DNA of 64,000 bases from an uncultured Eisenbergiella sp. (GCA_947627215.1 CANQVD010000018.1:6250-70249), one strand, 5' to 3'; positions 37,482 through 54,055 are shown, numbered from the stretch's first letter. Translations and numbers: made by a program. Notes: a model not told the origin generated them from the letters alone.

Positions 37482-38513
37482 ATGACAAAGGTCACCATGC
37501 AGGACATCGCCGATGCTGTCGGCACCTCGCGCATCACCGTCTGGAAAGCGTTCAATCACAAAAGCGGCGTATCGGAGACCACACGCCTGCAGATCCTGCG
37601 CACCGCCGCCGATATGGGCTACCAGAAGCTGCCGTCCGATATTTTCGAGGAGGTATCGTCGCTGCACCACAAAACGGCGGCCCTCATCGTCTCCAGGCCC
37701 GAGACCTCCATCTTCTGGACAAACATCATTCACGAGATCGCCAAGGAATTTTCCCGGCATGACACCGATCTGATCTATACCTACGTTCCCCACATCTACG
37801 AAGACGGCTATACCCTGCCCGCCACCCTGCACGAGGGCGGCGTCAGCGGCTGCATCATGCTGAACGTCTACGACAGGCATATCCTGCGGCTGATAAACCG
37901 CCTTCCCATCCCAAAGGTATTCCTGGATACCGCGGCGGACACGCCTCCATCCGGGCTGCAGGGGGATCTGATCCTGCTGGAAGGAAAGGATACTCTGTGC
38001 GCCCTGACGGATTACGTCATCCGCCACGGCTATACCCGGCTGGGGTTCATCGGGGACATCCATTACGCCCGGACCAACGCCATGCGCTATCACGGATTTC
38101 TGGAGGCCATGCAGGAAAACGGGCTCACCGTCGATCCTGGCTGCTGCCTCTGCACCCCTTTCGGAGCCGATACCTACGAAGAACAGATCGCGGCATTCCT
38201 GGACGGCCTGTCCAGTCTCCCCCAGGGCTTCATCTGCGTCAGCGATTATGTCGCCTCTGTCACACGTTCCTGCCTTTTAAGCCGCGGTCTGCGGATCCCG
38301 GAGGACATCATCCTGACCGGCTATGACGGCAGCACGGAACAGAACAACGCCCAGCTCTGCGCCACCGTCAACGTGAATACGGCCGCACTGGGACAGCGCC
38401 TCGCCATGCAACTCCTCTACCGCATCGAAAATCCCCACGCCTCCCGGGAAACGGTTTTCATCGAATCTCCAATCGTCTACCCCACGCCCTGTCCCTCACG
38501 CACGGACGGGTAA
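37482..38513 (+). CDS. LacI-family regulator (divergent from the GRE operon)
   Basis: HTH 'VTMQDIADAVGTSRITVWKAFN', 'LTGYDG'. Confidence 0.9.
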   Translation: MTKVTMQDIADAVGTSRITVWKAFNHKSGVSETTRLQILRTAADMGYQKLPSDIFEEVSSLHHKTAALIVSRPETSIFWTNIIHEIAKEFSRHDTDLIYTYVPHIYEDGYTLPATLHEGGVSGCIMLNVYDRHILRLINRLPIPKVFLDTAADTPPSGLQGDLILLEGKDTLCALTDYVIRHGYTRLGFIGDIHYARTNAMRYHGFLEAMQENGLTVDPGCCLCTPFGADTYEEQIAAFLDGLSSLPQGFICVSDYVASVTRSCLLSRGLRIPEDIILTGYDGSTEQNNAQLCATVNVNTAALGQRLAMQLLYRIENPHASRETVFIESPIVYPTPCPSRTDG

Positions 38514-38648: not shown

Positions 38649-40346
38649 TCAGTCGATCTTCTTGGTCACGCCGCGGATCTCCAGATACTTGTCCAGATTC
38701 AGGCCGTCGAAGCCGTCGCAGTAAGCCTGCCATACGGCATCGTCGTCCACATCCTGCTGGCCTGCGATGAACAGAGCCTGCTGCTGCGTGAAGTAATCCT
38801 TGATGGAGGTCGCATACTCGGAGTAGATCTCCACATCGTCCAGATCGACCCAGAAGGAATCGATGATGTTCTTGGTCAGATAAGGCTCATAGTACTCCTG
38901 CAGCGCAGCCTTCTCATCGTACAGCGGATGATCCTCCTTGAACTTGAAGCCCAGAGGCATGAACTTGGGCAGCGCCTGAGGCCACAGATTGCTCCAGCCG
39001 TACTTGTTCTGATCTTCCTCGGACATCGTGGAGCTGTCCACGACATAATAATCGTTGACAATGCCGTCCGCCGTCGCCGCGAACGCGGTGGGATCGTCGC
39101 CCTCCTGACGTACCATGACGCCGATGGGGCCCTTGCTGATGGAGATGCCGTTTTCCAGATTGAACACGGTATCGAACCAGCGAACGATGATCTCGGGATG
39201 CTCTGCGTTGTCGGTGATGACAGCCTGCGTCCTGTAAACGGAATTGCCGGTGGTATCTCTCAGCCAGATGCCGCCGTTGTCCGCGTTCAGCACGGGCAGG
39301 AAGTCAAACTCGCCCTTTTCCTCGGTGATCTCCAGACCGGAGAACTCCTGAGAGCCGTAGGCGATGGAGCAGCCGTACAGGTCGCGGTTTCCTTTGCCTT
39401 CCCAGGTAGCGGAATCCTGCGTGGAGATCTCGGTGTCGATCAGGCCTTTTTCATACAGCTTGTTGAACCAGCTTAAGAACTGTCTGTAACCGTCGCTCTC
39501 GGCCGCCCAGGCGGTCTCGCCGTCCTCGGTGACGGTGAAGCCCACGTTGTTCATCGGCACGCCAAAATAACCGGCCATGGCTTCCAGATGCTTGTTGTTG
39601 GGGTCAGTGGAGAACGGGATCTCATCGTTGGGGTCGCCGTTTCCGTTGGCGTCCTGATCCTTGAAGGCCTGCAGGACAGCCTCAAACTCGTCCGTGGTGG
39701 TAGGCATATCCATCCCTACGTTCTCCAGCCAGCGGGTGTTGATGAAGGGGGTGTAACCCACCGTCGTGTCGTCCACGACATAAGGGATCGAGTAAATATG
39801 TCCGTCGGGAGCGGTCATCTTCTCCCGCACGCCGGGCAGATCCAGAACCGCGGAAATGTTGGGCGCGTACTGCGCGAACAGATCCTCCAGCGGGATAAAG
39901 ATCCCCTGATCCACGCCGTAGGTCAGGATCATGTTGTCGGACAGCGTCCAGCCGCCGATCACATCCGCATAGTCGCCGGAGTTCAGATCCAGGTTCAGCC
40001 TCTCGGTAGCGCTCTCATAAGGGAAATACTTCAGATCGATATCCACATTGGTCTGCTCCTTCAGAGCGTCCAGCGTCACGAACTCGCCGGTGGAGCTGGA
40101 ATCGTCCACGAAGATGGAGAAGGTATAATCCCCCTCATCCACGATCGGAAGCCCTTCGGCGTACATGATGCCGTTCACCTTACCGTCCGCATCCACTTCC
40201 GCGGGAGCGGCTTCCTCGGTCTTGCTGTCCGAAGAAGAGCTGTCGGAACTGCTGGAGCTGCTGGAGCTGCCGGAACTTCCGCAGCCCGCCAGTGCAGTCA
40301 CGACCATCACGGCCGTCAGCAATACTGCTACTAACTTTTTCTTCAT
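38649..40346 (-). CDS. Oligosaccharide ABC solute-binding lipoprotein (LplA-like)
   Basis: Lipobox 'LAGC', Ser-rich linker, 'APDGHIYSIP', 'DANGNGDPNDEIP'. Confidence 0.88.
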   Translation of the reverse strand: MKKKLVAVLLTAVMVVTALAGCGSSGSSSSSSSSDSSSSDSKTEEAAPAEVDADGKVNGIMYAEGLPIVDEGDYTFSIFVDDSSSTGEFVTLDALKEQTNVDIDLKYFPYESATERLNLDLNSGDYADVIGGWTLSDNMILTYGVDQGIFIPLEDLFAQYAPNISAVLDLPGVREKMTAPDGHIYSIPYVVDDTTVGYTPFINTRWLENVGMDMPTTTDEFEAVLQAFKDQDANGNGDPNDEIPFSTDPNNKHLEAMAGYFGVPMNNVGFTVTEDGETAWAAESDGYRQFLSWFNKLYEKGLIDTEISTQDSATWEGKGNRDLYGCSIAYGSQEFSGLEITEEKGEFDFLPVLNADNGGIWLRDTTGNSVYRTQAVITDNAEHPEIIVRWFDTVFNLENGISISKGPIGVMVRQEGDDPTAFAATADGIVNDYYVVDSSTMSEEDQNKYGWSNLWPQALPKFMPLGFKFKEDHPLYDEKAALQEYYEPYLTKNIIDSFWVDLDDVEIYSEYATSIKDYFTQQQALFIAGQQDVDDDAVWQAYCDGFDGLNLDKYLEIRGVTKKID

Positions 40347-40412
40347 TCTTTCATCTCCTTTTCTTTTTTTATATCAAACGGCCCCTTCAGCCGCATTGAT
40401 ACCGAAAACGGA

Positions 40413-41342
40413 TCAGCCCTTGACGGAACCGATCATGACGCCCTTGACGAAGTGCTTCTGAATGAACGGATACAGCACCAGTACGGGCACGCTGCTGATG
40501 ATGATCAGGGAGTACTTCATGACCTCGATCAGCTCCTTCTGCGCGTTCATCGCCGCTCTGGCCTCCGCCGTAACGGCGGTCTGGGACAGCGCCGCCTCGT
40601 TGGTGATCAGGATCCTTCGCAGGACCAACTGCAGCGGGAACTTCTGCGAATCGGACAGATAGATCAGGGCGGAGAAGTAGGAGTTCCAGTGGCCTACGCC
40701 GTAGTACAGCACCATGATAGCCGTGATGGCGCCGGACAGGGGCAGCGCGATCTGGAAGAAGAACTTGCCCTGGGTACAGCCGTCGATCTCCGCGGCCTCA
40801 TAGAGCTCCTCGGAAATATTGGACTTGAAGAAGGTCCTCGCCACGATCATATTGTAAACACTCAGGCATCCGGGCAGGATCAGCGCCCACATGGTGTTGA
40901 GCAGGTGGAAGCTTCTGACGACCAGGTAGGTAGGGATCAGGCCGCCGCCGAAGAACATCGTGATCACGTAAAAGATGGTGACGATCTTCTTGCCGGAGAA
41001 CTTATCCCGGGACAGCGCATACGCGGTGGGCAGCGTCACGGCCAGGTTCACCAGCACGCCGCAGACCGTGTATAAAATGGAATTCAGGAAGCTTCGTACG
41101 ATGGAATCGTCCTTGAACACCTCCGCGTAGCCCTTCAGGGTGAAGCCCACGGGCAGCCACAGCACTTTGCCGCCGGACACCGCCGCCGGATCGCTGAAGG
41201 AGGAAATGATGACCCACCACAGCGGATAGGCCACGATGATCAGGATCAGCGTCAGGACGATAAACAGGATCGTATCGAAAATCACGTCTTCCTTACAGCG
41301 CTTGATCTTTTTGGGCTGAACGACTGCATCATTCTTTTTCAT
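40413..41342 (-). CDS. ABC permease (LplC-like)
   Basis: 'EAAEIDG', 'YPFIQKHFVKGVMIGSVKG'. Confidence 0.92.
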   Translation of the reverse strand: MKKNDAVVQPKKIKRCKEDVIFDTILFIVLTLILIIVAYPLWWVIISSFSDPAAVSGGKVLWLPVGFTLKGYAEVFKDDSIVRSFLNSILYTVCGVLVNLAVTLPTAYALSRDKFSGKKIVTIFYVITMFFGGGLIPTYLVVRSFHLLNTMWALILPGCLSVYNMIVARTFFKSNISEELYEAAEIDGCTQGKFFFQIALPLSGAITAIMVLYYGVGHWNSYFSALIYLSDSQKFPLQLVLRRILITNEAALSQTAVTAEARAAMNAQKELIEVMKYSLIIISSVPVLVLYPFIQKHFVKGVMIGSVKG

Positions 41343-41359
41343 GATTTTCCCTCCTTCCC

Positions 41360-42307
41360 TTAGAACAGGCTGTTGCCGGACAGCTTATCCGAAACCGTAT
41401 TGACGATGATCAGCATTACCATGTTCACCAGCGTGTTGAACAGGCCGATGGCAGAGGAATAGGACATGTTGTTGTCGATCAGACCGACCTTATACACGTA
41501 GGTGGAGATGATCTCGGATACGGAAAGGTTCAGGTCGTTCTGCAGCGCGTATGCCTTTTCAAAGCCGATGGAGAGGATGCTGCCGCAGTTCATGATCAGC
41601 AGGATCGTCGCCGTCGGGAGGATGGACGGAAGGTCTATGTAGCGGATCAACTGGAACTTGGTGGCGCCGTCGCACTTGGCCGCCTCATGCAGCTCCGGGC
41701 TGATGCCGGACAGCGCGGCAAAGTAGATGACGGAACTCCAGCCCATGCCCTGCCAGACGCCGGACCAGACGTACAGATGTCTCCAGTACTCCTTCTTCGC
41801 CATGAAGTTGACCGCTTCGCCGCCGAACATCTTGATCACGTTGTTGATAATGCCGACGCTGGGCGAAAGGAACAGGATCAGCATACCGCACATGACGATG
41901 GTGGAAATGAAGTTGGGCGCATAGGTGACGGTCTGGATCACCTTGCGGTATTTCGCATGACGGAAGGAATTCAGCATCAGCGCCAGGACGATCGGGATCG
42001 GGAAGGAAACGATCAGGCTGTACAGGCTTAAGATCAGCGTATTCGAGATCGTCTGACCGAAATACGGCGATTCGAAGAAGCGGACGAAGTAACGCATGCC
42101 GACCCATTCACTGCCCCAGATACCGGCCCTCGCGTTGAATTTGCGGAACGCGATCTGCACGCCGTACATGGGAATGTAGCTGAAGATGAACGTCAGCACA
42201 ATGCCCGGAATGCAGAACATCCACAGGGACCAGTCTCTTTTGAGAAGCTGCATGAAGGTGTACTTCTTCGGCTTGATGGTTCCTGCGCCTTTGTTTTTTG
42301 CTTTCAT
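41360..42307 (-). CDS. ABC permease (LplB-like)
   Basis: 'YIPMYGVQIAF', 'EAAKCDGA', 'ISTYVYKVG'. Confidence 0.92.
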   Translation of the reverse strand: MKAKNKGAGTIKPKKYTFMQLLKRDWSLWMFCIPGIVLTFIFSYIPMYGVQIAFRKFNARAGIWGSEWVGMRYFVRFFESPYFGQTISNTLILSLYSLIVSFPIPIVLALMLNSFRHAKYRKVIQTVTYAPNFISTIVMCGMLILFLSPSVGIINNVIKMFGGEAVNFMAKKEYWRHLYVWSGVWQGMGWSSVIYFAALSGISPELHEAAKCDGATKFQLIRYIDLPSILPTATILLIMNCGSILSIGFEKAYALQNDLNLSVSEIISTYVYKVGLIDNNMSYSSAIGLFNTLVNMVMLIIVNTVSDKLSGNSLF

Positions 42308-42580
42308 AAGAATCCCTCCTATCTTTTTGTCTGCACAGCCCCATGTGCAGCAGTTAATATTAGGTTAACATAGGTATGCTCCCCTATGTTTATAACCATA
42401 CCACAAGTTCTCTACCAATGAAAGACTTTTTTTCAAATTATTCATACTTTTTTTTCAAAAAAATTATATTCTCTTAAAAGTGTATGGCAAAATCACAAAA
42501 ACGGAGACCTCTTTTCGTCGAAGTCCCCGTTTTCCTTTCATGACTTTATAAAAAGATACTTGTATTAATATTTGTTAACA

Positions 42581-44041
42581 TCATCTTTGCAGGCAGAATA
42601 CCCGGCCGATGGGAGCCTTTTCGGCGCGCTTCCCGCAGGGCCTTCCGGCGCGGACCGTAAGGCCGCCCTGCCCCTTTATGAAGGGGAGCTTTTCTCCGCT
42701 GTCCAGCGCAGTGACCGCTCCGACCGCTCCCTCGTAAGGGATCCATACCTCTTCCTCCACCGCGCAGTCCTCCCGCGGGAAGGTCTGGATGGCGTATACG
42801 GTATCCTCCTTTTTCGTGAAGGCGATGCCGTCCTTTTTGTAAGGGGCGCACACGCGGGTGCCGTAGATGGCATCCCCGTAAACGGAGAGCCACTCGCCCA
42901 TGCCCAGCAGACTTTTCACCGCGCCCTTCGGCAGGCACCCGTTGGGCTGCGGGCCCACGTTGATGGCCAGGTTGCCGCCTTTGGCCACGATATCCGCCAG
43001 CAGACAGATCACCTCCCTGGGGCTCTTGTAGCTGTCCTCATAGGCGAAGGAGAAAGAAGTTCCCAGCGTGATGCAGCTTTCCCAGGGGATGGAAAGGGGC
43101 TTCTCCGGCACGCACTGCTCCGGCGTCACATAGTTCTCATAGGGGCCGCCCACCGTCCGGTCGGCGCACAGCAGGCCCGGCTGGTATTTGCGCAGCCGCT
43201 CGATGACCTCGCCCAGCCGGATGTCCTGACCGTTTCTTTCGCACACCCAGCCCGCGTCGAACCACATGCCGTCCAGATGGCCGTACCTGGTGCCCAGCTC
43301 CATGATCTGATTCTGGGTGAACGTCACGAACCGTTCCCACTCCTCCGGATTCTCCTTCGGATCGTAGGAAGGGCCCCGGTTCTGATAGGTTCCCTTTTCG
43401 CCCGCTTCCTTCCAATAGCTGTCCACATGCCAGTCCGCTTTGGAAAAATAGGGGATGATCCCCAGCCCCCTCTTGCGGAACGACTCGAACAGATGCGCGC
43501 AGATATCCGCGTACCGGTTCGCCGAAAACGGGCAGTCCGGCGCCGTGACCTTGTAGTCCGAATACTGACTGTCCCACATGCAGAAGCCGTCGTGATGCTT
43601 GGTGGTGAAGAGCAGATATCGGGTTCCCGCCGTTTTGGCGATGTCCGCCCACTTTTCCGGTTCAAAGCGGGCCGGATTGAAGGTTTTATTCAGGGCGAAA
43701 TACTGTTTTTTCAGTTCCTCTCCCGTGATCTCCCAGTCGATTCCGCGCCGGGACCACACGGCGTCGGCGTCCGAAAGCGCCCAGGATTCCACGATGCCCC
43801 ACTGGCTGTAGGGGCCCCAGTGCATCATCAGCCCCAGCTTCTGGTCCCGGAACCATTCCAGCTTTTTGAGCACCTTCGGATCCTCGGGCCACACGTACCG
43901 GTCCTCCCGGCTATAGTTATGCACGCCGTCCTGTACGGCCTCTTCCTTTTCCTTTTTTTCCTCTTCCCCGTCCACAGGCATTTCCGCCGCGGGCAGAGCG
44001 TCCTTCTTTTCTTCTCCCACGATGTCTTTCCTTTCTCTCAC
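42581..44041 (-). CDS. GH29 alpha-L-fucosidase family protein
   Basis: 'KLGLMMHWG', 'TTKHHDGF', nucleophile 'WFDAGW'; start uncertain (GTG 44041 or ATG 43981). Confidence 0.88.
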   Translation of the reverse strand: MRERKDIVGEEKKDALPAAEMPVDGEEEKKEKEEAVQDGVHNYSREDRYVWPEDPKVLKKLEWFRDQKLGLMMHWGPYSQWGIVESWALSDADAVWSRRGIDWEITGEELKKQYFALNKTFNPARFEPEKWADIAKTAGTRYLLFTTKHHDGFCMWDSQYSDYKVTAPDCPFSANRYADICAHLFESFRKRGLGIIPYFSKADWHVDSYWKEAGEKGTYQNRGPSYDPKENPEEWERFVTFTQNQIMELGTRYGHLDGMWFDAGWVCERNGQDIRLGEVIERLRKYQPGLLCADRTVGGPYENYVTPEQCVPEKPLSIPWESCITLGTSFSFAYEDSYKSPREVICLLADIVAKGGNLAINVGPQPNGCLPKGAVKSLLGMGEWLSVYGDAIYGTRVCAPYKKDGIAFTKKEDTVYAIQTFPREDCAVEEEVWIPYEGAVGAVTALDSGEKLPFIKGQGGLTVRAGRPCGKRAEKAPIGRVFCLQR

Positions 44042-44059
44042 GATGTCTTTCTTTTCTCC
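44018..44059. repeat. 21-bp tandem duplication spanning the GH29 start
   Basis: cacgatgtctttc(c/t)tttctc(t/c) twice. Confidence 0.85.
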
Positions 44060-44125
44060 GTCACGGATCCGGCGTTTTTTCGGCCGCGCCTCGTTTCCCG
44101 GCCCTTCTGTCTTTCCGCGCTGTCT

Positions 44126-45145
44126 CTATTCCTTTTCGAGCGTCAGAACCTCGCCGTCCGTCAGCAGAAGCAGCTCCTTCCCTTCGTCTGTGTCACAGGA
44201 CAGCTCAAAAGCATGCCGCGTATGCTCATACCGGACTTTTCCGGTCCCGTTTTCTGCCGCCCCTTCCAGGTCCAGCTCCGCCAGCGACGCCGGAAAATGC
44301 CCATTGGCGTCATAAAAGGCGTGCAGACCGTAGTAGAGCGTCCGCAGCTCCCACTTTTCCTTTTCAACGGAAGGGATCTCGCAGACCTCATCCCCCTCCG
44401 TAAAAAAGACGAAGCCCCAGAGCTCCGGATAATGGATGTTGATCACGCCGGTGGGCGCCCAGACCCAGTTGTCCTCCGGCAGGACCTTCCCGTCCGCGTC
44501 CCTTCTCTTCTCATAGCGGTTGTCAATGATATCCACCTTCCACTGTACTCTGGAAAAATTGACGCGGTAGTATTCTCCCGGCCGCGGCGCGCGCTTTTCG
44601 GGCGTGCACTCGAACACGGAGGCAAAGGGAATCATCACCTCCACCGTCCAGCGCCTGTTGTCCGCCGAGGGATCGTTGAGCTTCCCGTCGATCCGAACAG
44701 CCGTCTTCAGGCCGTGGATGTCATATCCGTTCAGCGCCTGCCCCCGGTCCCGATAGGGCCTGGACAGGAACAGATCCCACACCGTGTTCCTGGCGTTCAT
44801 CTCGAATTCAAAATACTGGTGAGTATCGGAATCCGGGTCGATGAAAATTTCAAAATCGTTATCGTAAAAGATCACGCTGTCCCGCTGCGTCTGGTGTCCC
44901 CAGATTTCCGTCCCCTCCAGTTCGGCGCCGATATAGAGGTTTTCGTCGTCCCAAAGCAGCTTCGCCCGTGTCCGGAACCGGGGTACGGGACGGCTGCTGC
45001 CCTCGATATCCGCAAAATCATCCGTAAATTCCGCGTCCTTCCAGAATTCCTTTTCCAGATCGCCGTCCGGCACGAAGGGCAGCTTCGCCCTCCTGCACTG
45101 ATAGACCGGCGGCGCGAAGCCGACGATGGGTTTCGGTATCCTCAT
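44126..45145 (-). CDS. CBM9-like (DOMON-type) sugar-binding domain protein
   Basis: 'AKLLWDDENLYI', 'DNDFEIFIDP', 'YFEFEMN', 'WTVEVMIP', 'NFSRVQW'. Confidence 0.75.
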   Translation of the reverse strand: MRIPKPIVGFAPPVYQCRRAKLPFVPDGDLEKEFWKDAEFTDDFADIEGSSRPVPRFRTRAKLLWDDENLYIGAELEGTEIWGHQTQRDSVIFYDNDFEIFIDPDSDTHQYFEFEMNARNTVWDLFLSRPYRDRGQALNGYDIHGLKTAVRIDGKLNDPSADNRRWTVEVMIPFASVFECTPEKRAPRPGEYYRVNFSRVQWKVDIIDNRYEKRRDADGKVLPEDNWVWAPTGVINIHYPELWGFVFFTEGDEVCEIPSVEKEKWELRTLYYGLHAFYDANGHFPASLAELDLEGAAENGTGKVRYEHTRHAFELSCDTDEGKELLLLTDGEVLTLEKE

Positions 45146-45182
45146 CCTGAAATTCCTCCTTATTTATAGGCGGTCGGCCCGT

Positions 45183-46199
45183 TCACCGGTCCAGCCGCCC
45201 GCGCAAAAACGCCGTCAGCGTATGGCTCGTATCACAGCCGTATTCCCAGCACATGATCCCGCGCAGTCCCTTCTCCTTCAGATAATCGACCTTATATCCC
45301 AGGGACTCCTCGTCGTCATAGCTGATAAAGCAGTCCCCATTGAACAGCCAGGGGGCCTTCGCGTCGTCGTCCCAATACCGGACAAAGCCGTTTTTGTTGA
45401 TATATTTTTCCACCAGCTCCCCGTAATGATGACCGCCGGTGCCCACGCTCTTCGCCATCTGGCACAGCCCGTGGTCCCTGCCGCATACGCCGGTCCAGGT
45501 ACGGGCATAAAAGGCCGCCCCGATGACCAGCTTTTCCGCCGGGACACCGGCCTGCAAAAACTCCCGCACCGCCTTGTCCGCGCAGGCGTCCGACAGATCC
45601 GCAGGCGTAGCGTACAGGCTGGTGTGATGTCCCGCGGCCGTGGAAAACCCGCCCCGCAGATCATATGTCATGATCTGCACGTAGTCCAGATACGCGGCCG
45701 CCCGGTCCATCTGCGTGTTGCGGACGAAATAGGAATCCCCGCCCGCGGCAATGGAAAGAAGATACCGCCCCGGCTCCTTTGCCTCCATGGCCCCGCGCAG
45801 CTCCTGCAAAAGCAGCGTGAAATTCTCCTTATCCGCCGGGTCGGCGCCGATCTCGGCCACGGACATGCAGGGATATTCCCAGTCGATATCGATGCCGTCC
45901 AGACCGTAACGCTCCACCAGTTCCATGGATGTCTCCGCGAAGAGACGGCGTCCCTCCCCGGTATAGGCCGCTTCGGAAAATCCGCCCGCGCCCCAGCCGC
46001 CTACAGAAAGCAGGATCTTCATCTCCGGATTCAGCCGGCGCAGACGCGCGATGGCCTCCGCGTATTCCGGATGCTCCCAGATCACCCTGCCCTCCGCCAC
46101 ATGGGCGAAGGCGATATTGATCACATCGATGCAGGCCGCTTCCTCTTCCTTTACCTGCGGCAGATTCCTGTCCACCACATATTCGATCAGTTGCTTCAT
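45183..46199 (-). CDS. GH18 chitinase/endo-beta-N-acetylglucosaminidase-like protein
   Basis: Intact DxDxE 'DGIDIDWEYP', 'SVGGW', 'MTYD'; no signal peptide. Confidence 0.9.
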   Translation of the reverse strand: MKQLIEYVVDRNLPQVKEEEAACIDVINIAFAHVAEGRVIWEHPEYAEAIARLRRLNPEMKILLSVGGWGAGGFSEAAYTGEGRRLFAETSMELVERYGLDGIDIDWEYPCMSVAEIGADPADKENFTLLLQELRGAMEAKEPGRYLLSIAAGGDSYFVRNTQMDRAAAYLDYVQIMTYDLRGGFSTAAGHHTSLYATPADLSDACADKAVREFLQAGVPAEKLVIGAAFYARTWTGVCGRDHGLCQMAKSVGTGGHHYGELVEKYINKNGFVRYWDDDAKAPWLFNGDCFISYDDEESLGYKVDYLKEKGLRGIMCWEYGCDTSHTLTAFLRGRLDR

Positions 46200-46229
46200 G
46201 TTGACCTCCCGTCGGGGCAACCCCCGTCC

Positions 46230-48584
46230 CTATCCGCGCTGCAGTCTGGCCAGAAGCTGCGCCGCGGCGCCCACCTGATAGCCGCAGAACGCATAGACGC
46301 CCCTGCCGTCCTCCCGCACCGCCACACCCAGCGGATATTTGTTCTCCTCCAGACCCATGGCCCCGGCCGCCGCAGCGGCACCGTCGAAGTCCGGCGTTTC
46401 AATGAGCCTCACGCCCGCCGCCTCCTGCAAAAGACGTTCCAGCGTTCCGAACGCTCTGGGGCCTCTGCGGCTGACCAGACAGATCTCCTCCTGATGCTGT
46501 CTGACGTCGCCGATCCGCTCCAGAAGCTCATTCAGGATATGTTCCGTGGGCTCCTCGCCCTCACAGATCCAGATGCAGACCGCCCGGCGGCCTTTCGGGA
46601 GTGCTTCCGGCATCACCGGCGGCAATGCGCGCGCGTCCTCCTCCGGCTCCTGCGCCGAAGGTCGGACGAGACCGATCTGCCTTCCCTCTGGTCCCAGCGC
46701 GAAGCAAAGCTCCCGTACGCGCTGGTTCCCGTCCTTCGACCGCACCGGAAGGATCAACTGATATTCTCCCGGGGCGAGCGAAAGCTCCAGCCGACCGTCC
46801 GCCCAGGCCGCACCGCGCAGCCACAGAGGACGGTACTGCCCGTCCTCCAGACGGTTCAGGGCATAATCGGTCCCGTAATTCCAGGCGGCCGCGCCTTCCG
46901 CGTCCCGCAGGACCAGCTTCGCCTTCGGCCCTTCCTCCGTCCTGCACGCCGGGCGAAATCCGCCGTTCCGGAAATACTGCGCCTCGCCGGTCACCGGATC
47001 CAGCCGCGCCGGAATGCCGAAGGTGCGGGCCACGGCGAGAAACAGGTTCTTCTGATCGCGAACGCTTCCCTTTCCGCTCCGCACCGCATTGACGGGGTTG
47101 ATGCGAAGCGTGTCGTAGGCATCCTCCGTCGGCCTCTCCAGTCCGGCACAGACCTCTTCCCAGATCCGCTCCGGCCGCTCCTCAAAGTCGGCACGCCTCC
47201 CGGCGAACATCTCCTCCAGCTCCTTCCGCCAGCAGGAAAGCTCCTCCAGCTCCAGCCGGGGATTCAGCACACAGGAGACGAAAACGTCCTCCGGAATCCC
47301 GTCCCGCCCGGCGTAGGCCATGGCATGGGTGAAATGCGCTTCCAGCACGTCCGCCCGCAGATCGTAATAGTCCTTCTGCGTCAGCGCCTGCAGTAGCTTT
47401 ATCCGGTAGGGGCTGTCGTCCTTTTCCAGAAAAGCGATCACTTCCCCGAAATTACCGCCCGCCGTGCGCAGGATCTGCGCCGCCTCCGGAAACGCCGCCG
47501 CCCGGTCCTCCTGATAATAGGAAGCGAGCCGCTTTTCCCGGCTTTCCTTCTGCGCCTCCAGCTCCGCCTTATCCTCCTGATAGGTACGGCCCGCTTTCGT
47601 CGCGTCTCCCTTCGGCGCGAAAAAGCTGTACTCCCTCCAGACTTCCTCCGGCGTCCGCTCCAGCGTCACACAGAGTTCTCCGTCCCGCTCCGCCTCCGTC
47701 AGGGTCCGCAGAAGCTGTCCGTCCCGCACGCAGGATACCTGCAGGCTCCCGCAGCCCAGGCGCATGCGGAAATGACCGTTTTCATCCGACGGCACGGTCG
47801 CGATCGTCCCGTAATGACCGTAGTTGAGCACTTCCAGCCGCACCGGCGTTCCCGCCAGCGGCTCACCCTCCGGCCCCTTCACCGCAAAATCCACCTGCAC
47901 GGTCTTCGCATAATGAGCGGTCACGTTGTAAAAGGTCGCGCATCCGTTCCGGGCGATCACGCTGTCATCCGGATGCAGCAGTCCGAAGCTTCTGGCATGC
48001 ACCAGCATGGCCCGGGACGCGGGCATGTCGAACCATCCCTTGTCCAGCTCCGGCTCCGGCTCGCAGGCGCCCAGATACCGCCAGACGCCGCCGCAGTACA
48101 CCTCCACCCAGGCATGATTGTCGTCACAGTGGGACCAGAGCGGCGCATAGACCTGCCTCGCCGGGATCCCCACGCTGCGCAGCACCGTCACCACAAAGGT
48201 GCTCTCCTCTCCGCAGCGCCCAAACGCGCTCTTATAGACGGTCATGGCGTTGGCCGTCCTGGGATCCGCCAGATGATAGGTCGCCTGATGCGCGCACCAG
48301 TCATTCACCCGCAGGATCGCCTCCTCCGCAGAAAGTCCCCCGAGCAGAGGCATCACCAGGTCATAAAAGAACCGCCTGCAGTCCTCGATCCGCTCATTGT
48401 TGATCCGGTAGGCCGCCACATTTTCCAGAAAAACGTCCTCCGGCAGCTCTCTGCACCAGTCCGCGTTCTCCCGCAGGAAACAGGCATGCCGGGCAAACCC
48501 CAGCAGGGTTTCCTCCGACACGTCCGTCTTATCACAGTAGGGCATGGAACTCCGGTAATACTCCATGATCTTCTTTTCCAGCAT
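46230..48584 (-). CDS. Transglutaminase-like (papain-fold) protein, candidate peptide:N-glycanase
   Basis: 'GRCGEES', 'NHAWVEVY', 'LGACEPE'; second, Cys-less TG-like repeat 'ARTFGIPARL'. Confidence 0.75.
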   Translation of the reverse strand: MLEKKIMEYYRSSMPYCDKTDVSEETLLGFARHACFLRENADWCRELPEDVFLENVAAYRINNERIEDCRRFFYDLVMPLLGGLSAEEAILRVNDWCAHQATYHLADPRTANAMTVYKSAFGRCGEESTFVVTVLRSVGIPARQVYAPLWSHCDDNHAWVEVYCGGVWRYLGACEPEPELDKGWFDMPASRAMLVHARSFGLLHPDDSVIARNGCATFYNVTAHYAKTVQVDFAVKGPEGEPLAGTPVRLEVLNYGHYGTIATVPSDENGHFRMRLGCGSLQVSCVRDGQLLRTLTEAERDGELCVTLERTPEEVWREYSFFAPKGDATKAGRTYQEDKAELEAQKESREKRLASYYQEDRAAAFPEAAQILRTAGGNFGEVIAFLEKDDSPYRIKLLQALTQKDYYDLRADVLEAHFTHAMAYAGRDGIPEDVFVSCVLNPRLELEELSCWRKELEEMFAGRRADFEERPERIWEEVCAGLERPTEDAYDTLRINPVNAVRSGKGSVRDQKNLFLAVARTFGIPARLDPVTGEAQYFRNGGFRPACRTEEGPKAKLVLRDAEGAAAWNYGTDYALNRLEDGQYRPLWLRGAAWADGRLELSLAPGEYQLILPVRSKDGNQRVRELCFALGPEGRQIGLVRPSAQEPEEDARALPPVMPEALPKGRRAVCIWICEGEEPTEHILNELLERIGDVRQHQEEICLVSRRGPRAFGTLERLLQEAAGVRLIETPDFDGAAAAAGAMGLEENKYPLGVAVREDGRGVYAFCGYQVGAAAQLLARLQRG

Positions 48585-48644
48585 CGCTTCTCCCCGCACG
48601 CTTCTCATCGCGTGAAATCTTACATTCTCCCGTTTTTTCCTCTG

Positions 48645-49934
48645 TCACGCATTCTGCGTCAACGCTTCCCCGCTGCCCAGGTTGCAGGCGATCTCTCCTT
48701 CCAGCTCCAGCTTCAGCACCGTGGTCAGCGGATGCATCTGCATATGCGCCGCCCAGATCCATAAGGTCCCCGCGATGCCCTCCCACGGAATGGAACCCGT
48801 GTAGGAAAACGCCAATTCCTCTCCCGTGTGCAGGACGGTGACGCGCTTCACCCGTGTCCTGACGCCCTTGACACAGACGTGCTCCGCGGGCCTGTCATAG
48901 AGGAAAAGGTAGATGGTCTTTTTATCCTCCGAAATCGTGCTGCCGCCCAGGAACTGCTGATAGGTCAGCCCCCTGCCGGTATCGTAGACCGCTTCCTCAT
49001 TGTCCCGGATGAACGCGCCCAGATCCTCCAGCACCTTCACCTGCCGCTCATCCAGCGTGCCGTCCTCCTTCGGTCCCACATCCAGCAGCAGATTGCCGCC
49101 CAGCGTCAGGCAGTCGCAGAAAATGCGGATCACCTGTCTGCTGGTCTTATAATCATTGTCAGAAGGCCGGTATCCCCAGGAATCGTTGATCGTGACGCAG
49201 AATTCCCACGGTCCTTTCGGTCCCAGGATCGGGATGCCCTGCTCCGGCGTGGCGTAATCGCCGTAGCCCTGCATCCTCGAATTGCATACCACATCCGGAT
49301 TCAGGGAATGCAGATACGCCCTGAAGGCAGGCATATTCCACTGCGCGGCGCTGCGCTCCCAGTCGCCGTCAAACCACAGAAGATCGATCTTTCCGTAATT
49401 TGTCATCAGCTCCCTGATCTGATCGTTGTTGAACTGCAGAAATTCCTTCCACTTTTCCGGATCCTCCGGGCCGCCCGCGGGAGAGCCGAATACGTCCTTC
49501 AGGCAGTCTTCCGGTTTGGCGCCTTCCGGATAAATGCTGCGGTAGCGCTCATCTGTCCAGTCCAGCAGGGAATAATAAAGCCCCACCTTCAGCCCTGCCT
49601 CCCGCATGGCTTCCACATATTCCTTCACCAGATCCCGACCCGCCGGCGTTTTCTTCACCACGCTCAGGTCGGAATACTTCGTATCGAACAGCGCCACGCC
49701 GTCATGATGCTTGGAAGTCATCACCGCATAGCGCGCCCCGGCGCGCACGAACAGCTCCGCCCAGGCCTTCGGATCATACCGGGAGGCGGTAAATCCCTCA
49801 CACTGCTTCATATAATCCGCATGGGAGATCTGGCCGTTGTGAAAAGACCAGGATTCGGACACGTCTCCCACCGCATAGATCCCGTAATGAATGAAAATAC
49901 CCAGCTTCGCTTTCCGAAACCATTCCTGCATCAT
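48645..49934 (-). CDS. GH29 alpha-L-fucosidase family protein
   Basis: 'KLGIFIHYG', 'TSKHHDG', 'LWFDGDW', 'GGNLLLDVGP'. Confidence 0.88.
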   Translation of the reverse strand: MMQEWFRKAKLGIFIHYGIYAVGDVSESWSFHNGQISHADYMKQCEGFTASRYDPKAWAELFVRAGARYAVMTSKHHDGVALFDTKYSDLSVVKKTPAGRDLVKEYVEAMREAGLKVGLYYSLLDWTDERYRSIYPEGAKPEDCLKDVFGSPAGGPEDPEKWKEFLQFNNDQIRELMTNYGKIDLLWFDGDWERSAAQWNMPAFRAYLHSLNPDVVCNSRMQGYGDYATPEQGIPILGPKGPWEFCVTINDSWGYRPSDNDYKTSRQVIRIFCDCLTLGGNLLLDVGPKEDGTLDERQVKVLEDLGAFIRDNEEAVYDTGRGLTYQQFLGGSTISEDKKTIYLFLYDRPAEHVCVKGVRTRVKRVTVLHTGEELAFSYTGSIPWEGIAGTLWIWAAHMQMHPLTTVLKLELEGEIACNLGSGEALTQNA

Positions 49935-50025
49935 GTCCGTTTCTCTCCCCTTCCCCAAAAAACGTTCCCGGAAGCGTCCGCGTTCCTTTGCACCCGTAAC
50001 GAACGGGACCCCCCCCTCGCTCTTT

Positions 50026-52428
50026 TCACGCCGTAAGGAACGCGACCGTCCCCATATCATTGTCCGCCAGCCGCTCCAGCGCTTCTGAAAGGGCGCCGCC
50101 CTCCATCAGCTCCAGCGCATAGCGAAATTCCCCGAACCCGGACAGATCCATCTTGAAATTGGTCTCCCAGGTATTGTTCATGATCCAGCTATAGACAGGC
50201 CGCCGGTTGTTCTCCTCTTTCCCGTCGCACAGCACGATGGGATGGTGCTCCATCTGTCCCATATACAAAAGCGGCGTATCCAGCGCGCTGATCAGCACAT
50301 TCCTTTCCGGCATATGATACAGAACGCCCTGATCGGCCATATAATACTCCATGTTGGTGCCCGGAAGCTGGTCGATGCCCGGCCGCATGGGGACGCCGCC
50401 GTTTCGAATGTAAAGCGCCGCGTCCGGCAGCGCCAGGGACAGCGGCAGGAAAACGCTCTCGATGTCCTCGCTCAGCAGCTTGGCAATCCGGCAGGTAAAC
50501 TCCACCCGGGGCAGACCCTTGTACAGCTTCAGGATGACGCTGCAAAAACGCGTTCCCGGCAGATCAAAGTCCAGCTCCGCTCTGGAAAAAACAGGCCCAT
50601 TGTCCAGGATCCGGATGTTTTTCAGGACGCCCTGATGCCGCACCGCGTGCAGGCCCCGGACGTTCCGCCCCAGGCGGTTCCTCTCGCCGTAGGCGTCGCC
50701 CCGGACCGTCGTCCGCTCCAGGATCGGCGTGAAAAAGGTCTCCAAGCCGCCCTTCAGAAGCTCCGTCCCCCGTTTTTTATCAAAAAAGGAAGTGATCCCC
50801 TCCCCGATCCGGTATCCGATCCGGAACCAGTCGTTCTCCAGCCCGTAAGGCAGCTTCCAGGATTCGGTATCGTAGCCGTTGACGATATCCCGGACCCGGT
50901 CCGCGCCGACCCAGGCGGTGCGGCTGTAGAGTCCCTTCGGCTCCCACGGCTGTTCTTCATATCGGAAGGTCTTCTCTTCCAGCGCTTCAAATTCCGCCAG
51001 AAAGCTCACCAGCACTCCTCTGGGATGTGCGCTGATCTGCGCCCGAAGCTCCTCCCCGGTCTTTTCATCCGTCACCTTCACCGCGCGGAGGTTTCCCGAT
51101 TCCACATAGAACTCCACCGGCAGCGTCCGCCGCTGACGGCTCATGGAAACCGCCTTCACCCGCCCGGAATGATCGTAATAGCGCAGCCGGTCCCCCAGGC
51201 GATGGCACAGCTCAATCTTTCGCATCGCCGCGGTCTCGCAGGCCTTCGACGCATAGCCGGTCTTCCGGATGTCCAGATCCGCCACCATCGTATCATAGGG
51301 ATTGCTGATCGTGGAGGAATGGCCCCAGGTGTGCTCCGCGTACAAAAGCGCGCTTTCCTCGCCCTCCTCCAGATGCGCGTTCCACGGTTCCTCACAGTGC
51401 CCAGCCTCCAGCACCTTCCGCTCCAGCACATCCCCGATATGGAACAGCCGCAGGGCCTCCCGGTAATGCTTCACCGCGTAGGGCGTGGAGCCCACGCCGT
51501 TTCCCCACCAGTCGTTCATCGCGCCCCGGTACACTGGCGCGTCCGCGGTCTTCTGCCGGATCAGGTCGTACAGCTCCTGCAGCGTCACCATCCGCAGGCG
51601 CAAATGATCCCCATACGCCTCATTGAACGCCCGGACCGTATGCGCGATCCCCGGATTCGCCGGAGCGTTGTCGGAAAAGACGCCGCTGACGCTGGTGATA
51701 TAAAAATCATACGGATAGCCGCTCTGCTCATATTCCTCCACGCTGGCGCAGAGATTTCGATACAGGCTCTCCAGGGGACTGCCCTTCCCGTTTTCGCCGA
51801 AATACCGCTCCGTCATGGAGTTGTCGTACCGGTTGAACACGATGCCCAGAGCGTTCCCGAGATTGTAGTGCTCCCCGTTCCAGACCAGAAGCCGGTCCCC
51901 GTTTTCCCTTTCCCAGAAAAACGGTTTCTGATTCTGATACAGCGGATACATCCCGTGATGGGTATGGATGTTGGTATACAAAAACTCCACGCCGTTATCC
52001 AAAAGCACGTCCCGGGCTCCCAGAGAAATTCCGTTGATATCCGCGTTCATGGCGCACTTCACGGCGATGCCCTCCTGCGCGAAGCGCGCCAGAAGCCCCG
52101 CCGTCTTCCGCCCCAGGATCCCGCAGTCCGCCAGATCGCAGAAATTCAGATAGCTGGCGGAAATGCCGATCCTCCCCCGCTTCACCAGCGAGAAAAAATC
52201 CGCCCGTTCCGCATCATCCGCCTGTTCCAAAAATTTTTCCACGCAGAAAAGCGTCTCGCAGTTCCATTTGAAATGCTTTTCCGGCCCTCCGTCCGAAACG
52301 GCCGCCCTCAGCAGAGCCGTCACGTTCCGGATGTTCTGGACCTGATTGTAGATCACCTGCTCCTGCAGGTCTGTATAGCCGATGTCCGTGTGGGAATGAT
52401 GTACGATATAGATGTTCCTGATATGCAA
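50026..52428 (-). CDS. GH38-like (alpha-mannosidase N-terminal domain) glycoside hydrolase
   Basis: Metal-binding 'HHSHTDIGYT', 'EHTWG', 'NNTWETNF'; TTG start inferred. Confidence 0.7.
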   Translation of the reverse strand: MHIRNIYIVHHSHTDIGYTDLQEQVIYNQVQNIRNVTALLRAAVSDGGPEKHFKWNCETLFCVEKFLEQADDAERADFFSLVKRGRIGISASYLNFCDLADCGILGRKTAGLLARFAQEGIAVKCAMNADINGISLGARDVLLDNGVEFLYTNIHTHHGMYPLYQNQKPFFWERENGDRLLVWNGEHYNLGNALGIVFNRYDNSMTERYFGENGKGSPLESLYRNLCASVEEYEQSGYPYDFYITSVSGVFSDNAPANPGIAHTVRAFNEAYGDHLRLRMVTLQELYDLIRQKTADAPVYRGAMNDWWGNGVGSTPYAVKHYREALRLFHIGDVLERKVLEAGHCEEPWNAHLEEGEESALLYAEHTWGHSSTISNPYDTMVADLDIRKTGYASKACETAAMRKIELCHRLGDRLRYYDHSGRVKAVSMSRQRRTLPVEFYVESGNLRAVKVTDEKTGEELRAQISAHPRGVLVSFLAEFEALEEKTFRYEEQPWEPKGLYSRTAWVGADRVRDIVNGYDTESWKLPYGLENDWFRIGYRIGEGITSFFDKKRGTELLKGGLETFFTPILERTTVRGDAYGERNRLGRNVRGLHAVRHQGVLKNIRILDNGPVFSRAELDFDLPGTRFCSVILKLYKGLPRVEFTCRIAKLLSEDIESVFLPLSLALPDAALYIRNGGVPMRPGIDQLPGTNMEYYMADQGVLYHMPERNVLISALDTPLLYMGQMEHHPIVLCDGKEENNRRPVYSWIMNNTWETNFKMDLSGFGEFRYALELMEGGALSEALERLADNDMGTVAFLTA

Positions 52429-52608
52429 TGCAGAGCCCCCTTCGGTGCGCACCCCGCAGCCCCCTGCTTACGCACCTGACCTAAAGATCTTAACCTGATT
52501 GACGATAACCGGTTTCCATACCATAGAAAATATCATATAGTTTAGTTATCATATAATAACATATATGTTTACTTATATCAAGTTTTTATTAACATTTTCT
52601 GTCGTCAC

Positions 52609-53772
52609 TCAAATATATGTCCCGCTGGTGTCCGCATAGATCTGGGCTTCCTTCTTCACCACGGTGGAATTTCTGATCTTCTCCTGCAAAAGCGCGTAGA
52701 AACGATCATCCGGGAAGTTCTTCACATCCACGGTCTCTCCTGTCCAGGCGCTCAGATGGATCGAATTGGAGATCGTCAGTCCGTTTATGCCCTCTTCCCC
52801 GGGCGCCAGAAGCTTCGTTCCGTTCAAAACAGCGGAAGCGAAATTGTTCAGGATACCCACATGCTGCGCGCCGCCGGAGCCGTCCACGGGGACCGTACAG
52901 TTCCAGCATTCGGGCGAGGCGAACGGCACCGTATTGGTCCTGTTGAACTCCCGCTCCGATATCACGTTGCGGCGGAACAGGATCTGTCCGTTTTCAACCA
53001 CCACTCTGCCCATATCGCAGGCGATCTCCAGGCGGTTCGTGCCGGGCGCTTCTCCGGTGGACGTAATATACTCTCCGGTGGTCCCGCTGTCATATTCCAT
53101 GAACGCCATCACATCGTCTTCCACTTCGATATTATAATATTTCCCGAAATACGCCCTGGCGAAGATCCGATCCGGCATTCCGAACATCCACTGCCACAGA
53201 TCGAGCTGATGCGGATTCTGATTGATCAGCGCGCCGCCGCCCTCGGTCTTCCAGGCAGAACGCCAGGTACTGCTGTCATGATACGCCTGGGGCCGATACC
53301 AGTCTGTGATGATCCAGGTGATCCTTTTGATATGTCCGAGCTCCCCACGGGCGACCATGTCCCGGACCTTCTGGTAAACAGGATTCGTTCTCTGATTATA
53401 CATAATGCCGAACAGCTTTCCGGAAGCGGCCGCAGCCTCGTTCATCTCCCTGACCTGACGCGTATAAACGCCCGCGGGCTTCTCCGTAATCACATGAAGC
53501 CCATGGCGGAACGCCTCTATCGCAAGAGACGGATGATCATAGTGATAAACAGCGATGAGAACTACGTCGCACAGTCCGCTCTCAAACAGCGCCGCGGCAT
53601 GATCGAACACCGGAATCTGCGGGTAAACGCTCCGCAGCGCCTCCCGTCTGGCAGGGGATATATCGCAGACCGCTCCCACTTTCATCGCCGGCACTTTGCC
53701 CTCCATCACATTCCTCACATGGGAAGTCCCCATATTGCCGTAGCCGATGATGCCGATTCGTAATTTGTCCAT
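52609..53772 (-). CDS. Gfo/Idh/MocA-family oxidoreductase
   Basis: Rossmann 'GIIGYGNMG', 'EKPAG', 'GGGALINQNPHQLD'. Confidence 0.92.
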   Translation of the reverse strand: MDKLRIGIIGYGNMGTSHVRNVMEGKVPAMKVGAVCDISPARREALRSVYPQIPVFDHAAALFESGLCDVVLIAVYHYDHPSLAIEAFRHGLHVITEKPAGVYTRQVREMNEAAAASGKLFGIMYNQRTNPVYQKVRDMVARGELGHIKRITWIITDWYRPQAYHDSSTWRSAWKTEGGGALINQNPHQLDLWQWMFGMPDRIFARAYFGKYYNIEVEDDVMAFMEYDSGTTGEYITSTGEAPGTNRLEIACDMGRVVVENGQILFRRNVISEREFNRTNTVPFASPECWNCTVPVDGSGGAQHVGILNNFASAVLNGTKLLAPGEEGINGLTISNSIHLSAWTGETVDVKNFPDDRFYALLQEKIRNSTVVKKEAQIYADTSGTYI

Positions 53773-53838
53773 TTGTACCTCCTTTTTGACCTTTCCCGCC
53801 GCAGGAAGCCGGCGGCCTCGCGGTTCATGAGTAAAGCC

Positions 53839-53867
53839 ATTATAACAAAGTCAACACGACTGTACAA
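53839..53867 (-). promoter_or_regulatory. Sigma-A promoter of the oxidoreductase
   Basis: TTGTAC-17-TATAAT. Confidence 0.65.
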
Positions 53868-53973
53868 CCACTATTTCACGAAAAAAAACATATCATATAT
53901 TCCCGTCCGTTCGTCCGCAGCCTTGGATTCATCCGGATAACCCGCAAAATCCATCATTCTGATCAGAATTCTG

Positions 53974-54001
53974 TTGAATCGTTGAATAAAAATGCTATAA
54001 T
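53974..54001 (+). promoter_or_regulatory. Sigma-A promoter of the GT-C gene
   Basis: TTGAAT-16-TATAAT with extended -10 TG. Confidence 0.6.
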
Positions 54002-54055
54002 ATCATTAGCTTTTCTTCGTCTCAATAACATAATCTGCCAAGGAGTTGGGAAACG

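Follow-up and report, generated by a model that had tools for sequence, protein, structure and literature searches.

What substrate is served by a run of ten genes that combines two glycoside hydrolase family 29 (GH29) alpha-l-fucosidases, a chitinase-like GH18 protein, a GH38-fold protein (GH38L), a transglutaminase (TGase)-fold protein, a protein resembling carbohydrate-binding module family 9 (CBM9-like), a Gfo/Idh/MocA oxidoreductase (Gfo), and a three-gene ATP-binding cassette (ABC) importer? This locus lies at positions 38649-53772, on the minus strand, of a 64,000-nucleotide stretch of DNA from an uncultured Eisenbergiella sp. (GCA_947627215.1 CANQVD010000018.1:6250-70249), which we call the window and whose positions are counted from its first letter. 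Our analysis favors, with a probability of about 0.68, the salvage of fucosylated N-glycan cores or glycopeptides by import and subsequent breakdown in the cytoplasm. The original prediction, made from the window sequence alone, had proposed the same import-then-degrade scheme, and comparative evidence now supports it: related loci carry M17 aminopeptidases, GH130, Opp-type importers, NagB, and ROK genes in synteny, a natural GH18-GH29 fusion exists, and GH38L occurs together with GH125.

A listing of open reading frames (ORFs) combined with Pfam and NCBIfam scans recovered all ten of the predicted genes, including those of the importer, in a single orientation (Table 1). None of the seven enzymes (0/7) has an N-terminal hydrophobic segment, in agreement with the earlier claim that they lack signal peptides; the only export signal is the LAGC lipobox of the solute-binding protein (SBP), and the enzymes are predicted to be cytoplasmic. 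Long ORFs on the plus strand over the locus (865, 756, and 745 aa) had no Pfam match and were set aside as high-GC antisense artefacts.

The gene order is conserved well beyond this organism. We compared 80 species-level loci around TGase homologues, each with flanks of about 10 kb; many contigs are short, and the neighbor counts are lower bounds. The TGase family comprises more than 7,700 clusters at 90% identity, with at least 594 species-level (GTDB) matches, and is present in Bacillota, Coriobacteriia, and others. Its neighbors in the 80 loci included CutC (31), permeases (28), GH29 (25), M17 (19), SBP (16), GH18 (15), Opp ATPases (13), CBM9 (11), ROK (8), and NagB (7). Synteny of the core block extends to at least 12 further species-level genomes (loci L003, L007, L010, L013 of Paenibacillus brevis, L020, L023, L027, L046 of Caldicoprobacter oshimai, L076, L094, L095, and L096), and the clustering is therefore not due to chance. 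Three arrangements were distinguished. Type I, that of the window, has the order CBM9-like, permease, permease, SBP, GH29, GH29, GH18, TGase, often with an added M17 aminopeptidase and LacI, and is found in P. brevis, C. oshimai, Lachnospiraceae CE91-St56, Candidatus Eisenbergiella pullicola, and others. Type II consists of an Opp-type peptide/oligosaccharide ABC system, (M17), CutC, (DeoR), and TGase, and type III of an AraC/Cache regulator, SBP, permeases, CutC, TGase, GH29, and M17.

Individual sister loci narrow the substrate. An M17 leucyl aminopeptidase lies within the operon of L003, and a GH130 beta-mannoside phosphorylase-family gene is inserted between TGase and GH18 in L095. In the metagenome-assembled genome (MAG) of a Clostridium sp. 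(L076:7440-9884, plus strand), GH18 (residues 6-321) and GH29b (379-714) form one ORF of 815 aa, and this natural fusion argues, as Rosetta-stone evidence, that the two enzymes act on one substrate. Because fucosidases, GH18, a beta-mannoside enzyme, aminopeptidases, and GlcNAc (N-acetylglucosamine) genes converge, the substrate would be the Man-beta1,4-GlcNAc-beta1,4-(Fuc)GlcNAc-Asn-peptide end of N-glycoproteins. In Herbinix sp., tandem TGase paralogues (850 and 843 aa) stand with GH29, GH18, CBM9-like, LacI, and CutC genes (L096:13489-18583).

We infer the following substrates and order of steps. The lipoprotein SBP and the two permeases would take up small glycopeptides or free core oligosaccharides with an ATPase encoded elsewhere; CUT1 systems usually receive their ATPase in trans. 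These substrates would be set free by proteases or glycosidases of the host or of other microbes, since the genome has no evident secreted endoglycosidase (no GH85 was found; the PNGase F/A families were not searched for). In the cytoplasm, GH29a and GH29b would strip the core fucose, the TGase-fold protein would cleave the GlcNAc-Asn amide as a cysteine hydrolase and remove Asn or the peptide, and GH18 would split the chitobiose core. GH38L would trim alpha-mannose, a task that six canonical GH38 enzymes and one GH125 enzyme encoded elsewhere could share, and GlcNAc, mannose, and fucose would enter central pathways via NagB, FucI, and related genes outside the locus. Elsewhere in the host genome (55% GC, 4.04 Mb, 97% complete) we found GH125, NagB, CutC, and FucI genes, and the genome has five GH29 genes in all. 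The six canonical GH38 genes (contigs C2, C37, C36, C94, C4, and C59) and the GH125 gene (C51:15401-16672) make up an unusually mannoside-oriented repertoire. A review of N-glycan breakdown (PMC10154615) attributes mannose trimming to GH38, GH92, and GH125 and cleavage of the Man-beta1,4-GlcNAc bond to GH2, GH5_18, and GH130.

Table 1. Positions of the locus genes, neighboring genes, and candidate regulatory elements in the window; likely true starts were taken from homologue lengths.
Feature	Position	Strand	Evidence and remarks
GH38L, GH38-fold protein	50026-52452	-	Pfam Glyco_hydro_38N, 29.2 bits (cut-off 25), full profile length
GH29a, GH29-A alpha-l-fucosidase	48645-50060	-	Pfam Alpha_L_fucos, 300 bits; likely true start 49934 (429 aa)
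TGase-fold protein, 792 aa	46230-48608	-	Pfam Transglut_core, 87 bits; likely true start 48584
GH18, chitinase-like, single-domain	45183-46220	-	Pfam Glyco_hydro_18, 230 bits; likely true start 46199
CBM9-like protein	44126-45145	-	Pfam CBM9_1 over residues 27-127
GH29b, GH29-A alpha-l-fucosidase	42581-44041	-	Pfam Alpha_L_fucos, 273 bits
ABC permease 1, LplB/UgpA-like	41360-42307	-	Pfam BPD_transp_1; 5 TM-like segments
ABC permease 2, LplC/UgpE-like	40413-41342	-	Pfam BPD_transp_1
SBP, lipoprotein of 565 aa, CUT1 oligosaccharide type	38649-40346	-	Pfam SBP_bac_8; LAGC lipobox
Gfo/Idh/MocA oxidoreductase, glycoside-3-dehydrogenase-like	52609-53772	-	Pfam GFO_IDH_MocA
LacI-family regulator	37482-38513	+	Pfam and NCBIfam; convergent with SBP gene; true start 37482
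Glycyl radical enzyme and activase	34224-37327		Beyond LacI
GerA gene	30412-32124
GT-C/PMT_2-like gene	54217-55470	+	In the lower-GC stretch
Lower-GC stretch	53773-56000		47% GC vs about 58%
TGTTAACA palindrome, candidate LacI operator	42573-42580		Head of GH29b-permease 1 spacer
TGTTAACA half-site	42364-42370		Permease 1 leader
TTTGTTAACAAA	37428-37439		Within promoter of the LacI gene
Terminator-like hairpin	42534-42497	-	15-bp stem; between GH29b and permease 1
Promoter-like site	42490-42463	-	Sigma-70 match 11/12; after hairpin, ahead of ABC genes

Both fucosidases belong to subfamily A of GH29 and are 31% identical to each other. The best match to GH29a in the PDB was 6gn6 (260 bits), and AlfC gave 118 bits; across GH29a and GH29b, AlfC scored 96-118 bits and 6gn6 was again the best match. 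Subfamily A includes alpha1,6-specific enzymes such as AlfC and BaGH29 (PMC11189522). Orthologues of GH29a that are 70-78% identical occur in L020, L023, L027, and L076, and orthologues of GH29b that are 59-78% identical occur in nine loci; because each enzyme has its own orthologues in other loci, the sequences suggest two distinct specificities.

GH18 carries the catalytic motif DGIDIDWE (DxxDxDxE type). It matched over its full length, with an E value of 1e-111, the PDB entry 6inx, a protein of the same size (345 aa) that is titled "N-acetylglucosaminidase"; we found no literature on this entry, whose activity is taken from the PDB title alone. The EndoH model gave 30 bits. Of the original description of GH18 as chitinase-like or an endo-beta-N-acetylglucosaminidase (ENGase), the first part holds and the second is the less likely. 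Judged by these homologies, GH18 is probably a chitobiase or exo-N-acetylglucosaminidase, and the chitobiase role is likelier than that of an ENGase. A GH18 enzyme, CTBS, is the lysosomal chitobiase.

A sequence search found no solved structure related to GH38L, and we therefore rely on its fold. An AlphaFold (AF2) model built from 29 homologues (mean predicted local distance difference test score, pLDDT, 77.8) matched full-length GH38 mannosidases in Foldseek with E values of 1e-30 to 1e-27 and template modeling (TM) scores of 0.61-0.68, including S. pyogenes 2wyh/2wyi, E. faecalis 5kbp, and Golgi mannosidase II (1hty). Identity to the solved GH38 enzymes was about 12% over about 930 aligned columns (best E 2e-30). 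The HHSHTD motif, D138, and other polar residues are invariant in the 29 homologues, and some active-site loops have low pLDDT. The model indicates that GH38L is probably a divergent alpha-mannosidase, a member of a family of more than 1,000 clusters. GH38L was unseen near TGase in the flanks of about 10 kb, which is an artefact of the flank limit: in L093 a GH38L that is 88% identical precedes GH29 as in the window, and in L094 GH38L directly abuts the type I module. In L087 it is accompanied by ROK, GntR, LacI, an ABC importer, and GH125. Among 150 genomes of the same family, sampled at one per genus, the CBM9-like gene was present in only three, and all three also encode an unlinked GH38L of 63-66% identity. 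In two unrelated genomes GH38L adjoins a protein of about 590 aa (L087:8169-9950, plus strand; L088:7952-9706, minus strand), for which we found no significant Pfam match, only a faint hint of a phosphomannose isomerase (PMI)-type cupin, and no homologue in the host genome.

The amide step falls to the TGase-fold protein as the best candidate, since no match to Asparaginase_2 (PF01112, glycosylasparaginase) was found anywhere in the 97% complete genome, despite its six GH38, GH125, five GH29, NagB, and FucI genes. The constant company of core-fucosidases, chitobiose-type enzymes, and aminopeptidases points to the same role. Among 50 homologues, Cys132 in GRCGEES, His165 in HCDDNHAWVE, and the GACEPE motif are invariant. 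The AF2 model (pLDDT 87.6, predicted TM score 0.89) matched TG2, factor XIII, and the putative cysteine protease 3isr in Foldseek and has a thioredoxin-like C-terminal domain, and by this model the protein is a TGase-fold cysteine hydrolase. In a phmmer search of the PDB it reached 3e8v, a "transglutaminase-family" fragment of Bacteroides fragilis, and then only peptide:N-glycanases (PNGases), weakly. We found no characterized bacterial TGase-fold PNGase in a literature search. Cleavage of the GlcNAc-Asn amide by this protein, in place of glycosylasparaginase, is a tentative assignment to which we give slightly less than an even chance. Residues around 500-560 appear to be a further TGase-like core that has no Cys (LFLAVARTFGIPARL) and repeats the helix-strand pattern of residues 132-179, and residues around 670-792 form a thioredoxin-fold domain that lacks redox cysteines and contains an invariant EGEEPTEH.

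Several observations weigh against the salvage of fucosylated N-glycan cores. The linkage specificity of GH29-A enzymes is unreadable from sequence, GH18 is closest to chitin-active enzymes (chitinase catalytic domains), and neither Gfo nor GH38L is linked to the module in every genome. The SBP is of a generic oligosaccharide type with no known N-glycan-binding relative; its best PDB matches were the S. pneumoniae SBP 5g5y-5g62 (159 bits), which we take to be FusA, a fructo-oligosaccharide SBP, and AlgQ1/Q2. GH130 was found neither in the locus nor in the genome, and the locus contains no candidate for a beta-mannosidase. As for the TGase, similarity to mouse PNGase 2f4m is weak (E 0.047), with the motifs GRCGE, H-x-W-x-E-V, and ACE aligned, and the position of the PNGase triad Asp is held by an invariant Gly180 in the family. 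The family profile retrieved only 3e8v and no PNGase from the PDB, and PNGases were absent from the top 50 Foldseek matches of the model. On these last two results, the protein is not classed here as a PNGase or demonstrable Png1 homologue. It is possible that D163 or E183 supplies a substitute carboxylate.

In one alternative, the substrate is still N-glycan core remnants, and the TGase acts as a peptidase or other hydrolase on the peptide, or as a non-catalytic scaffold, with the GlcNAc-Asn bond cut by CutC, the CBM9-like protein, or an unrecognized enzyme. The TGase superfamily consists mostly of proteases and transamidases, the canonical triad Asp is replaced by Gly, and the top structural matches were TG2 and 3isr rather than a PNGase. 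Furthermore, CutC is the commonest single neighbor (31/80) and stands in the slot that GH18 takes in type I loci, and the conservation of the CBM9-like protein resembles that of an enzyme. However, the peptide part already has recruited M17 aminopeptidases, Cys132 and His165 are invariant, PNGases are the sole TGase-fold PDB sequences that phmmer reached besides the 3e8v fragment, and glycosylasparaginase was not found in the genome. We regard this alternative as unlikely and retain the TGase as the candidate amidase.

CutC (PF03932), a TIM barrel named for "copper homeostasis," directly precedes the TGase gene in many genomes (L012, L015, L016, L019, L029-L033, L051, L054, L059, and others), and GH18 holds the corresponding slot in type I loci. 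The host has an unlinked CutC copy (G000:C57:5860-6582). CutC may be an unrecognized enzyme of N-glycan core catabolism.

In the CBM9-like protein, the match to CBM9_1 is confined to the first 100 residues, and a family profile search retrieved only the CBM9 modules 7nwn and 1i82. The family comprises more than 7,400 clusters, whose members are uniform in length (about 340-355 aa) and free of fusions. Identity is 55-81% across 12 distant genomes, from Paenibacillus to Caldicoprobacter, and many acidic and aromatic residues (Asp, Glu, and Trp) are invariant, a conservation that appears unusually high for a binding module. The protein is, judged by its distribution, a conserved and obligatory partner in the module, and it could be a reducing-end binder, a chaperone, or an unrecognized enzyme. 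That it is the missing beta-mannosidase is a speculative idea, suggested by the failure to find GH130 in either the locus or the genome. We can envisage the TGase family as a cytoplasmic glycoamidase that is joined by the CBM9-like protein and, in sister loci, CutC as unrecognized core enzymes; this composite proposal is possible but still more tentative than the amidase assignment itself. It would represent a third solution beside the Ntn-type glycosylasparaginase and PNGase F/A, either convergent or very anciently related.

A different substrate, namely oligosaccharides of GlcNAc that stem from chitin or another source and may include fucosylated chito-oligosaccharides of fungal, insect, or Nod-factor-like origin, would account for the chitinases and the GH18 N-acetylglucosaminidase among the best homologues of GH18, for the oligosaccharide type of the SBP, and for the failure to find a secreted ENGase in the genome. 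We consider it improbable, because M17, GH130, GH38L/GH125, the TGase-fold hydrolase, and two fucosidases recur and none of them is needed for chitin. In addition, no secreted chitinase was found in the genome, whose other two GH18 ORFs are spore-type or membrane-anchored in appearance. A mosaic of unrelated genes for other fucosylated glycans (mucin O-glycans, milk oligosaccharides, or xyloglucan) is very improbable: the lower-GC, lineage-specific insertion of Gfo and the GT-C gene, the unlinked GH38L of three family members, and the presence of at least two transcription units would fit it, but the GH29-GH29-GH18-TGase-CBM9-ABC-LacI block keeps its synteny across orders, GH18 and GH29 occur as a gene fusion, and GH95, GH20, GH2, GH112, and GH136-type partners, which such glycans would require, were not seen in the locus.

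The locus appears to be transcribed as more than one operon. Because a terminator-like hairpin and a promoter-like site lie between the enzyme and ABC genes, the latter are predicted to form a separate transcription unit. The gap between Gfo and GH38L is 156 nt and contains a promoter-like site; the regions upstream of GH38L in the window and in L093 could not be aligned, and no shared promoter or operator was definable there. The palindrome TGTTAACA occurs only twice in the 64-kb window, against 0.22 copies expected, once in the LacI promoter and once at the head of the spacer between GH29b and permease 1; a half-site is also present, and TTTGTTAACAAA lies within the promoter of the LacI gene itself. 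In L003, TGTTAACA stands upstream of module genes at both promoters, and in L094 it stands upstream of permease 1. In L007 it is found in the spacer between LacI and the glycyl radical enzyme (GRE) activase, and permease 1 is preceded there by GTTAAC cores only. A LacI gene is kept at the module end in five other genomes (L003, L007, L013, L020, and L076). The placement of the palindrome and this conserved position make LacI the likely regulator of the module, and LacI probably represses itself and the ABC unit via the predicted TGTTAACA operators.

The genes that flank the conserved unit have a different status. Gfo matched over its full length the glucuronide-3-dehydrogenase P2B11-Oxido1 (PDB 8tdi, 325 bits), and it keeps the active-site pattern W158-x-R160-x3-Y164 ... 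N184-x3-H188; the active-site residues of such dehydrogenases of 3-keto glycoside cleavage are named in bioRxiv 10.1101/2024.03.25.586180. Gfo was absent from the close relative L093 and from the flanks of 80 other loci. In L093, a Na/Pi transporter and a carbonic anhydrase gene are followed directly by GH38L. Since this locus lacks both Gfo and the GT-C gene of the lower-GC stretch, the two look like a recent lineage-specific insertion between carbonic anhydrase and GH38L. The oxidoreductase that the original prediction counted in the locus is therefore present but, with its absence from L093, is better described as an accessory gene outside the conserved unit. Among the ORFs scanned with Pfam in the locus and flanking DNA, some ORFs at 54-64 kb being unscanned, no AP_endonuc_2-type lyase/hydratase partner was seen. 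In a human-gut MAG, GH38L and the type I module are immediately preceded by a block of SDR, ThuA, and AP_endonuc_2 genes that also includes a BadF-type kinase and NagB (L094:5059-7294); this block may be a parallel to Gfo, and a recurrent tie of such modules to 3-keto chemistry is conceivable.

The comparison does not support the downstream role that the original prediction gave to the GRE. Outside the window, its activase was seen next to the module only in L007, the nearest relative, and the L007 contig stops short of any GRE gene. The window GRE is N-terminally short and reached none of the NCBIfam equivalog cut-offs. It is one of seven GRE paralogues in the genome; another, with 31% identity to it, lies with its activase directly beside seven bacterial microcompartment (BMC) shell genes (G000:C4:110570-123029). 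This glycyl-radical microcompartment on contig C4 is the likelier route for fucose-derived 1,2-propanediol. Given the adjacency in L007 only, the sub-cut-off scores, and the alternative on C4, the window GRE was set aside as an unsupported candidate for the fucose/propanediol step, and it is a neighbor rather than a member of the module. The spacer shared by LacI and the activase contains a candidate LacI operator, which precedes the predicted promoter of the activase by about 50 bp and makes co-regulation of the activase by LacI possible. The GerA gene further along the window indicates that the host, a gut member of the Clostridia, is a spore-former, and a MAG from rabbit gut with the label Eisenbergiella sp. 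carries the closest relative of the locus in the database.

The host, the diet, and milk supply the gut with N-glycoproteins, which form a large part of its nutrients. To our knowledge, the breakdown of the fucosylated chitobiose-Asn stub in Firmicutes is known for one Lactobacillus pathway only. The locus type described here is widespread in Lachnospiraceae, Oscillospiraceae, and Paenibacillus and holds three abundant families without an assigned activity, namely the TGase-fold, CBM9-like, and divergent GH38 proteins. Knowledge of their activities would close a gap in what is understood of glycan metabolism in the gut and might provide deglycosylation tools such as a cytoplasmic glycoamidase, core-specific fucosidases, and chitobiases.

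How, then, does this locus compare with known systems? The N-glycan system of S. pneumoniae combines an ABC importer with GH92, GH38, and GH125. Bifidobacterium longum has an operon of three GH38 genes and GH125 (PMC10154615). The window locus shares with these Gram-positive import-then-degrade systems a lipoprotein SBP with two permeases and signal-less, cytoplasmic enzymes, which there are exo-mannosidases of the GH38/GH125 type and here comprise two GH29 enzymes, GH18, and a GH38 fold encoded beside a CUT1 importer. Whereas those systems employ a secreted GH85 or GH18 endoglycosidase and work on the mannose arms, the window locus, in whose genome no secreted endoglycosidase was found, is centered on the fucose-chitobiose-Asn end, and its GH38 member is distant from the solved enzymes. 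The 3-keto-glycoside dehydrogenases (P2B11-Oxido1 8tdi; AL3/BT3; bioRxiv 10.1101/2024.03.25.586180) have in Gfo a full-length homologue with the active-site residues kept, but their pathway also includes a sugar-phosphate-isomerase-like lyase/hydratase and a second oxidoreductase, which are not adjacent to Gfo, and Gfo itself is not conserved with the module. Png1/NGLY1 (2f4m, 1x3w, and 3esw) is likewise a cytosolic cysteine hydrolase with a TGase core, has the GRCGE, H-x-W-x-E-V, and ACE motifs in common with the window TGase, and works alongside a chitobiose-cleaving enzyme and a GH38 mannosidase. However, the window TGase has a 3e8v-like, carboxypeptidase-regulatory-like beta domain, the apparent Cys-less second TGase-like domain, and the thioredoxin-like C-terminus, and PUB and PAW domains were not detected in it with Pfam.

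The closest characterized system is the alf-2 cluster of Lacticaseibacillus casei for Fuc-alpha1,6-GlcNAc-Asn, which comprises AlfH, AlfC, AsnA2, PepV, SugK, and AsdA (PMC6960285). As in alf-2, a core-fucosylated glycoamino acid would be imported here and dismantled in the cytoplasm, first by GH29-A and then at the GlcNAc-Asn bond; a peptidase in the cluster and control by a repressor, which is predicted here, are further parallels. They differ in uptake, by a major facilitator superfamily (MFS) permease in alf-2 and a CUT1 ABC importer here, and in the amidase, which is the glycosylasparaginase AsnA2 in alf-2 and for which the TGase-fold protein is the candidate replacement here. In addition, the GH18, CBM9-like, second GH29, and GH38-fold proteins of the window imply larger substrates (the chitobiose core with or without mannose). 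The locus appears to work like alf-2 and Png1-type systems but is a member of neither, because it lacks the glycosylasparaginase of the former and the triad Asp of, or any significant similarity to, the latter. In its logic, the locus is closest to lysosomal catabolism of Asn-linked glycoproteins. The lysosomal enzymes act in the order FUCA1 (GH29), AGA, CTBS (GH18), and MAN2B1/MAN2B2 (GH38), to which the order proposed here runs parallel; the same set of GH29, an amidase, a GH18 chitobiase, and GH38 would attack this end of the molecule in both cases. The lysosomal amidase is an N-terminal nucleophile (Ntn) hydrolase, whereas a TGase fold is proposed here, and the lysosome has its counterpart in a bacterial cytoplasm fed by an ABC importer.

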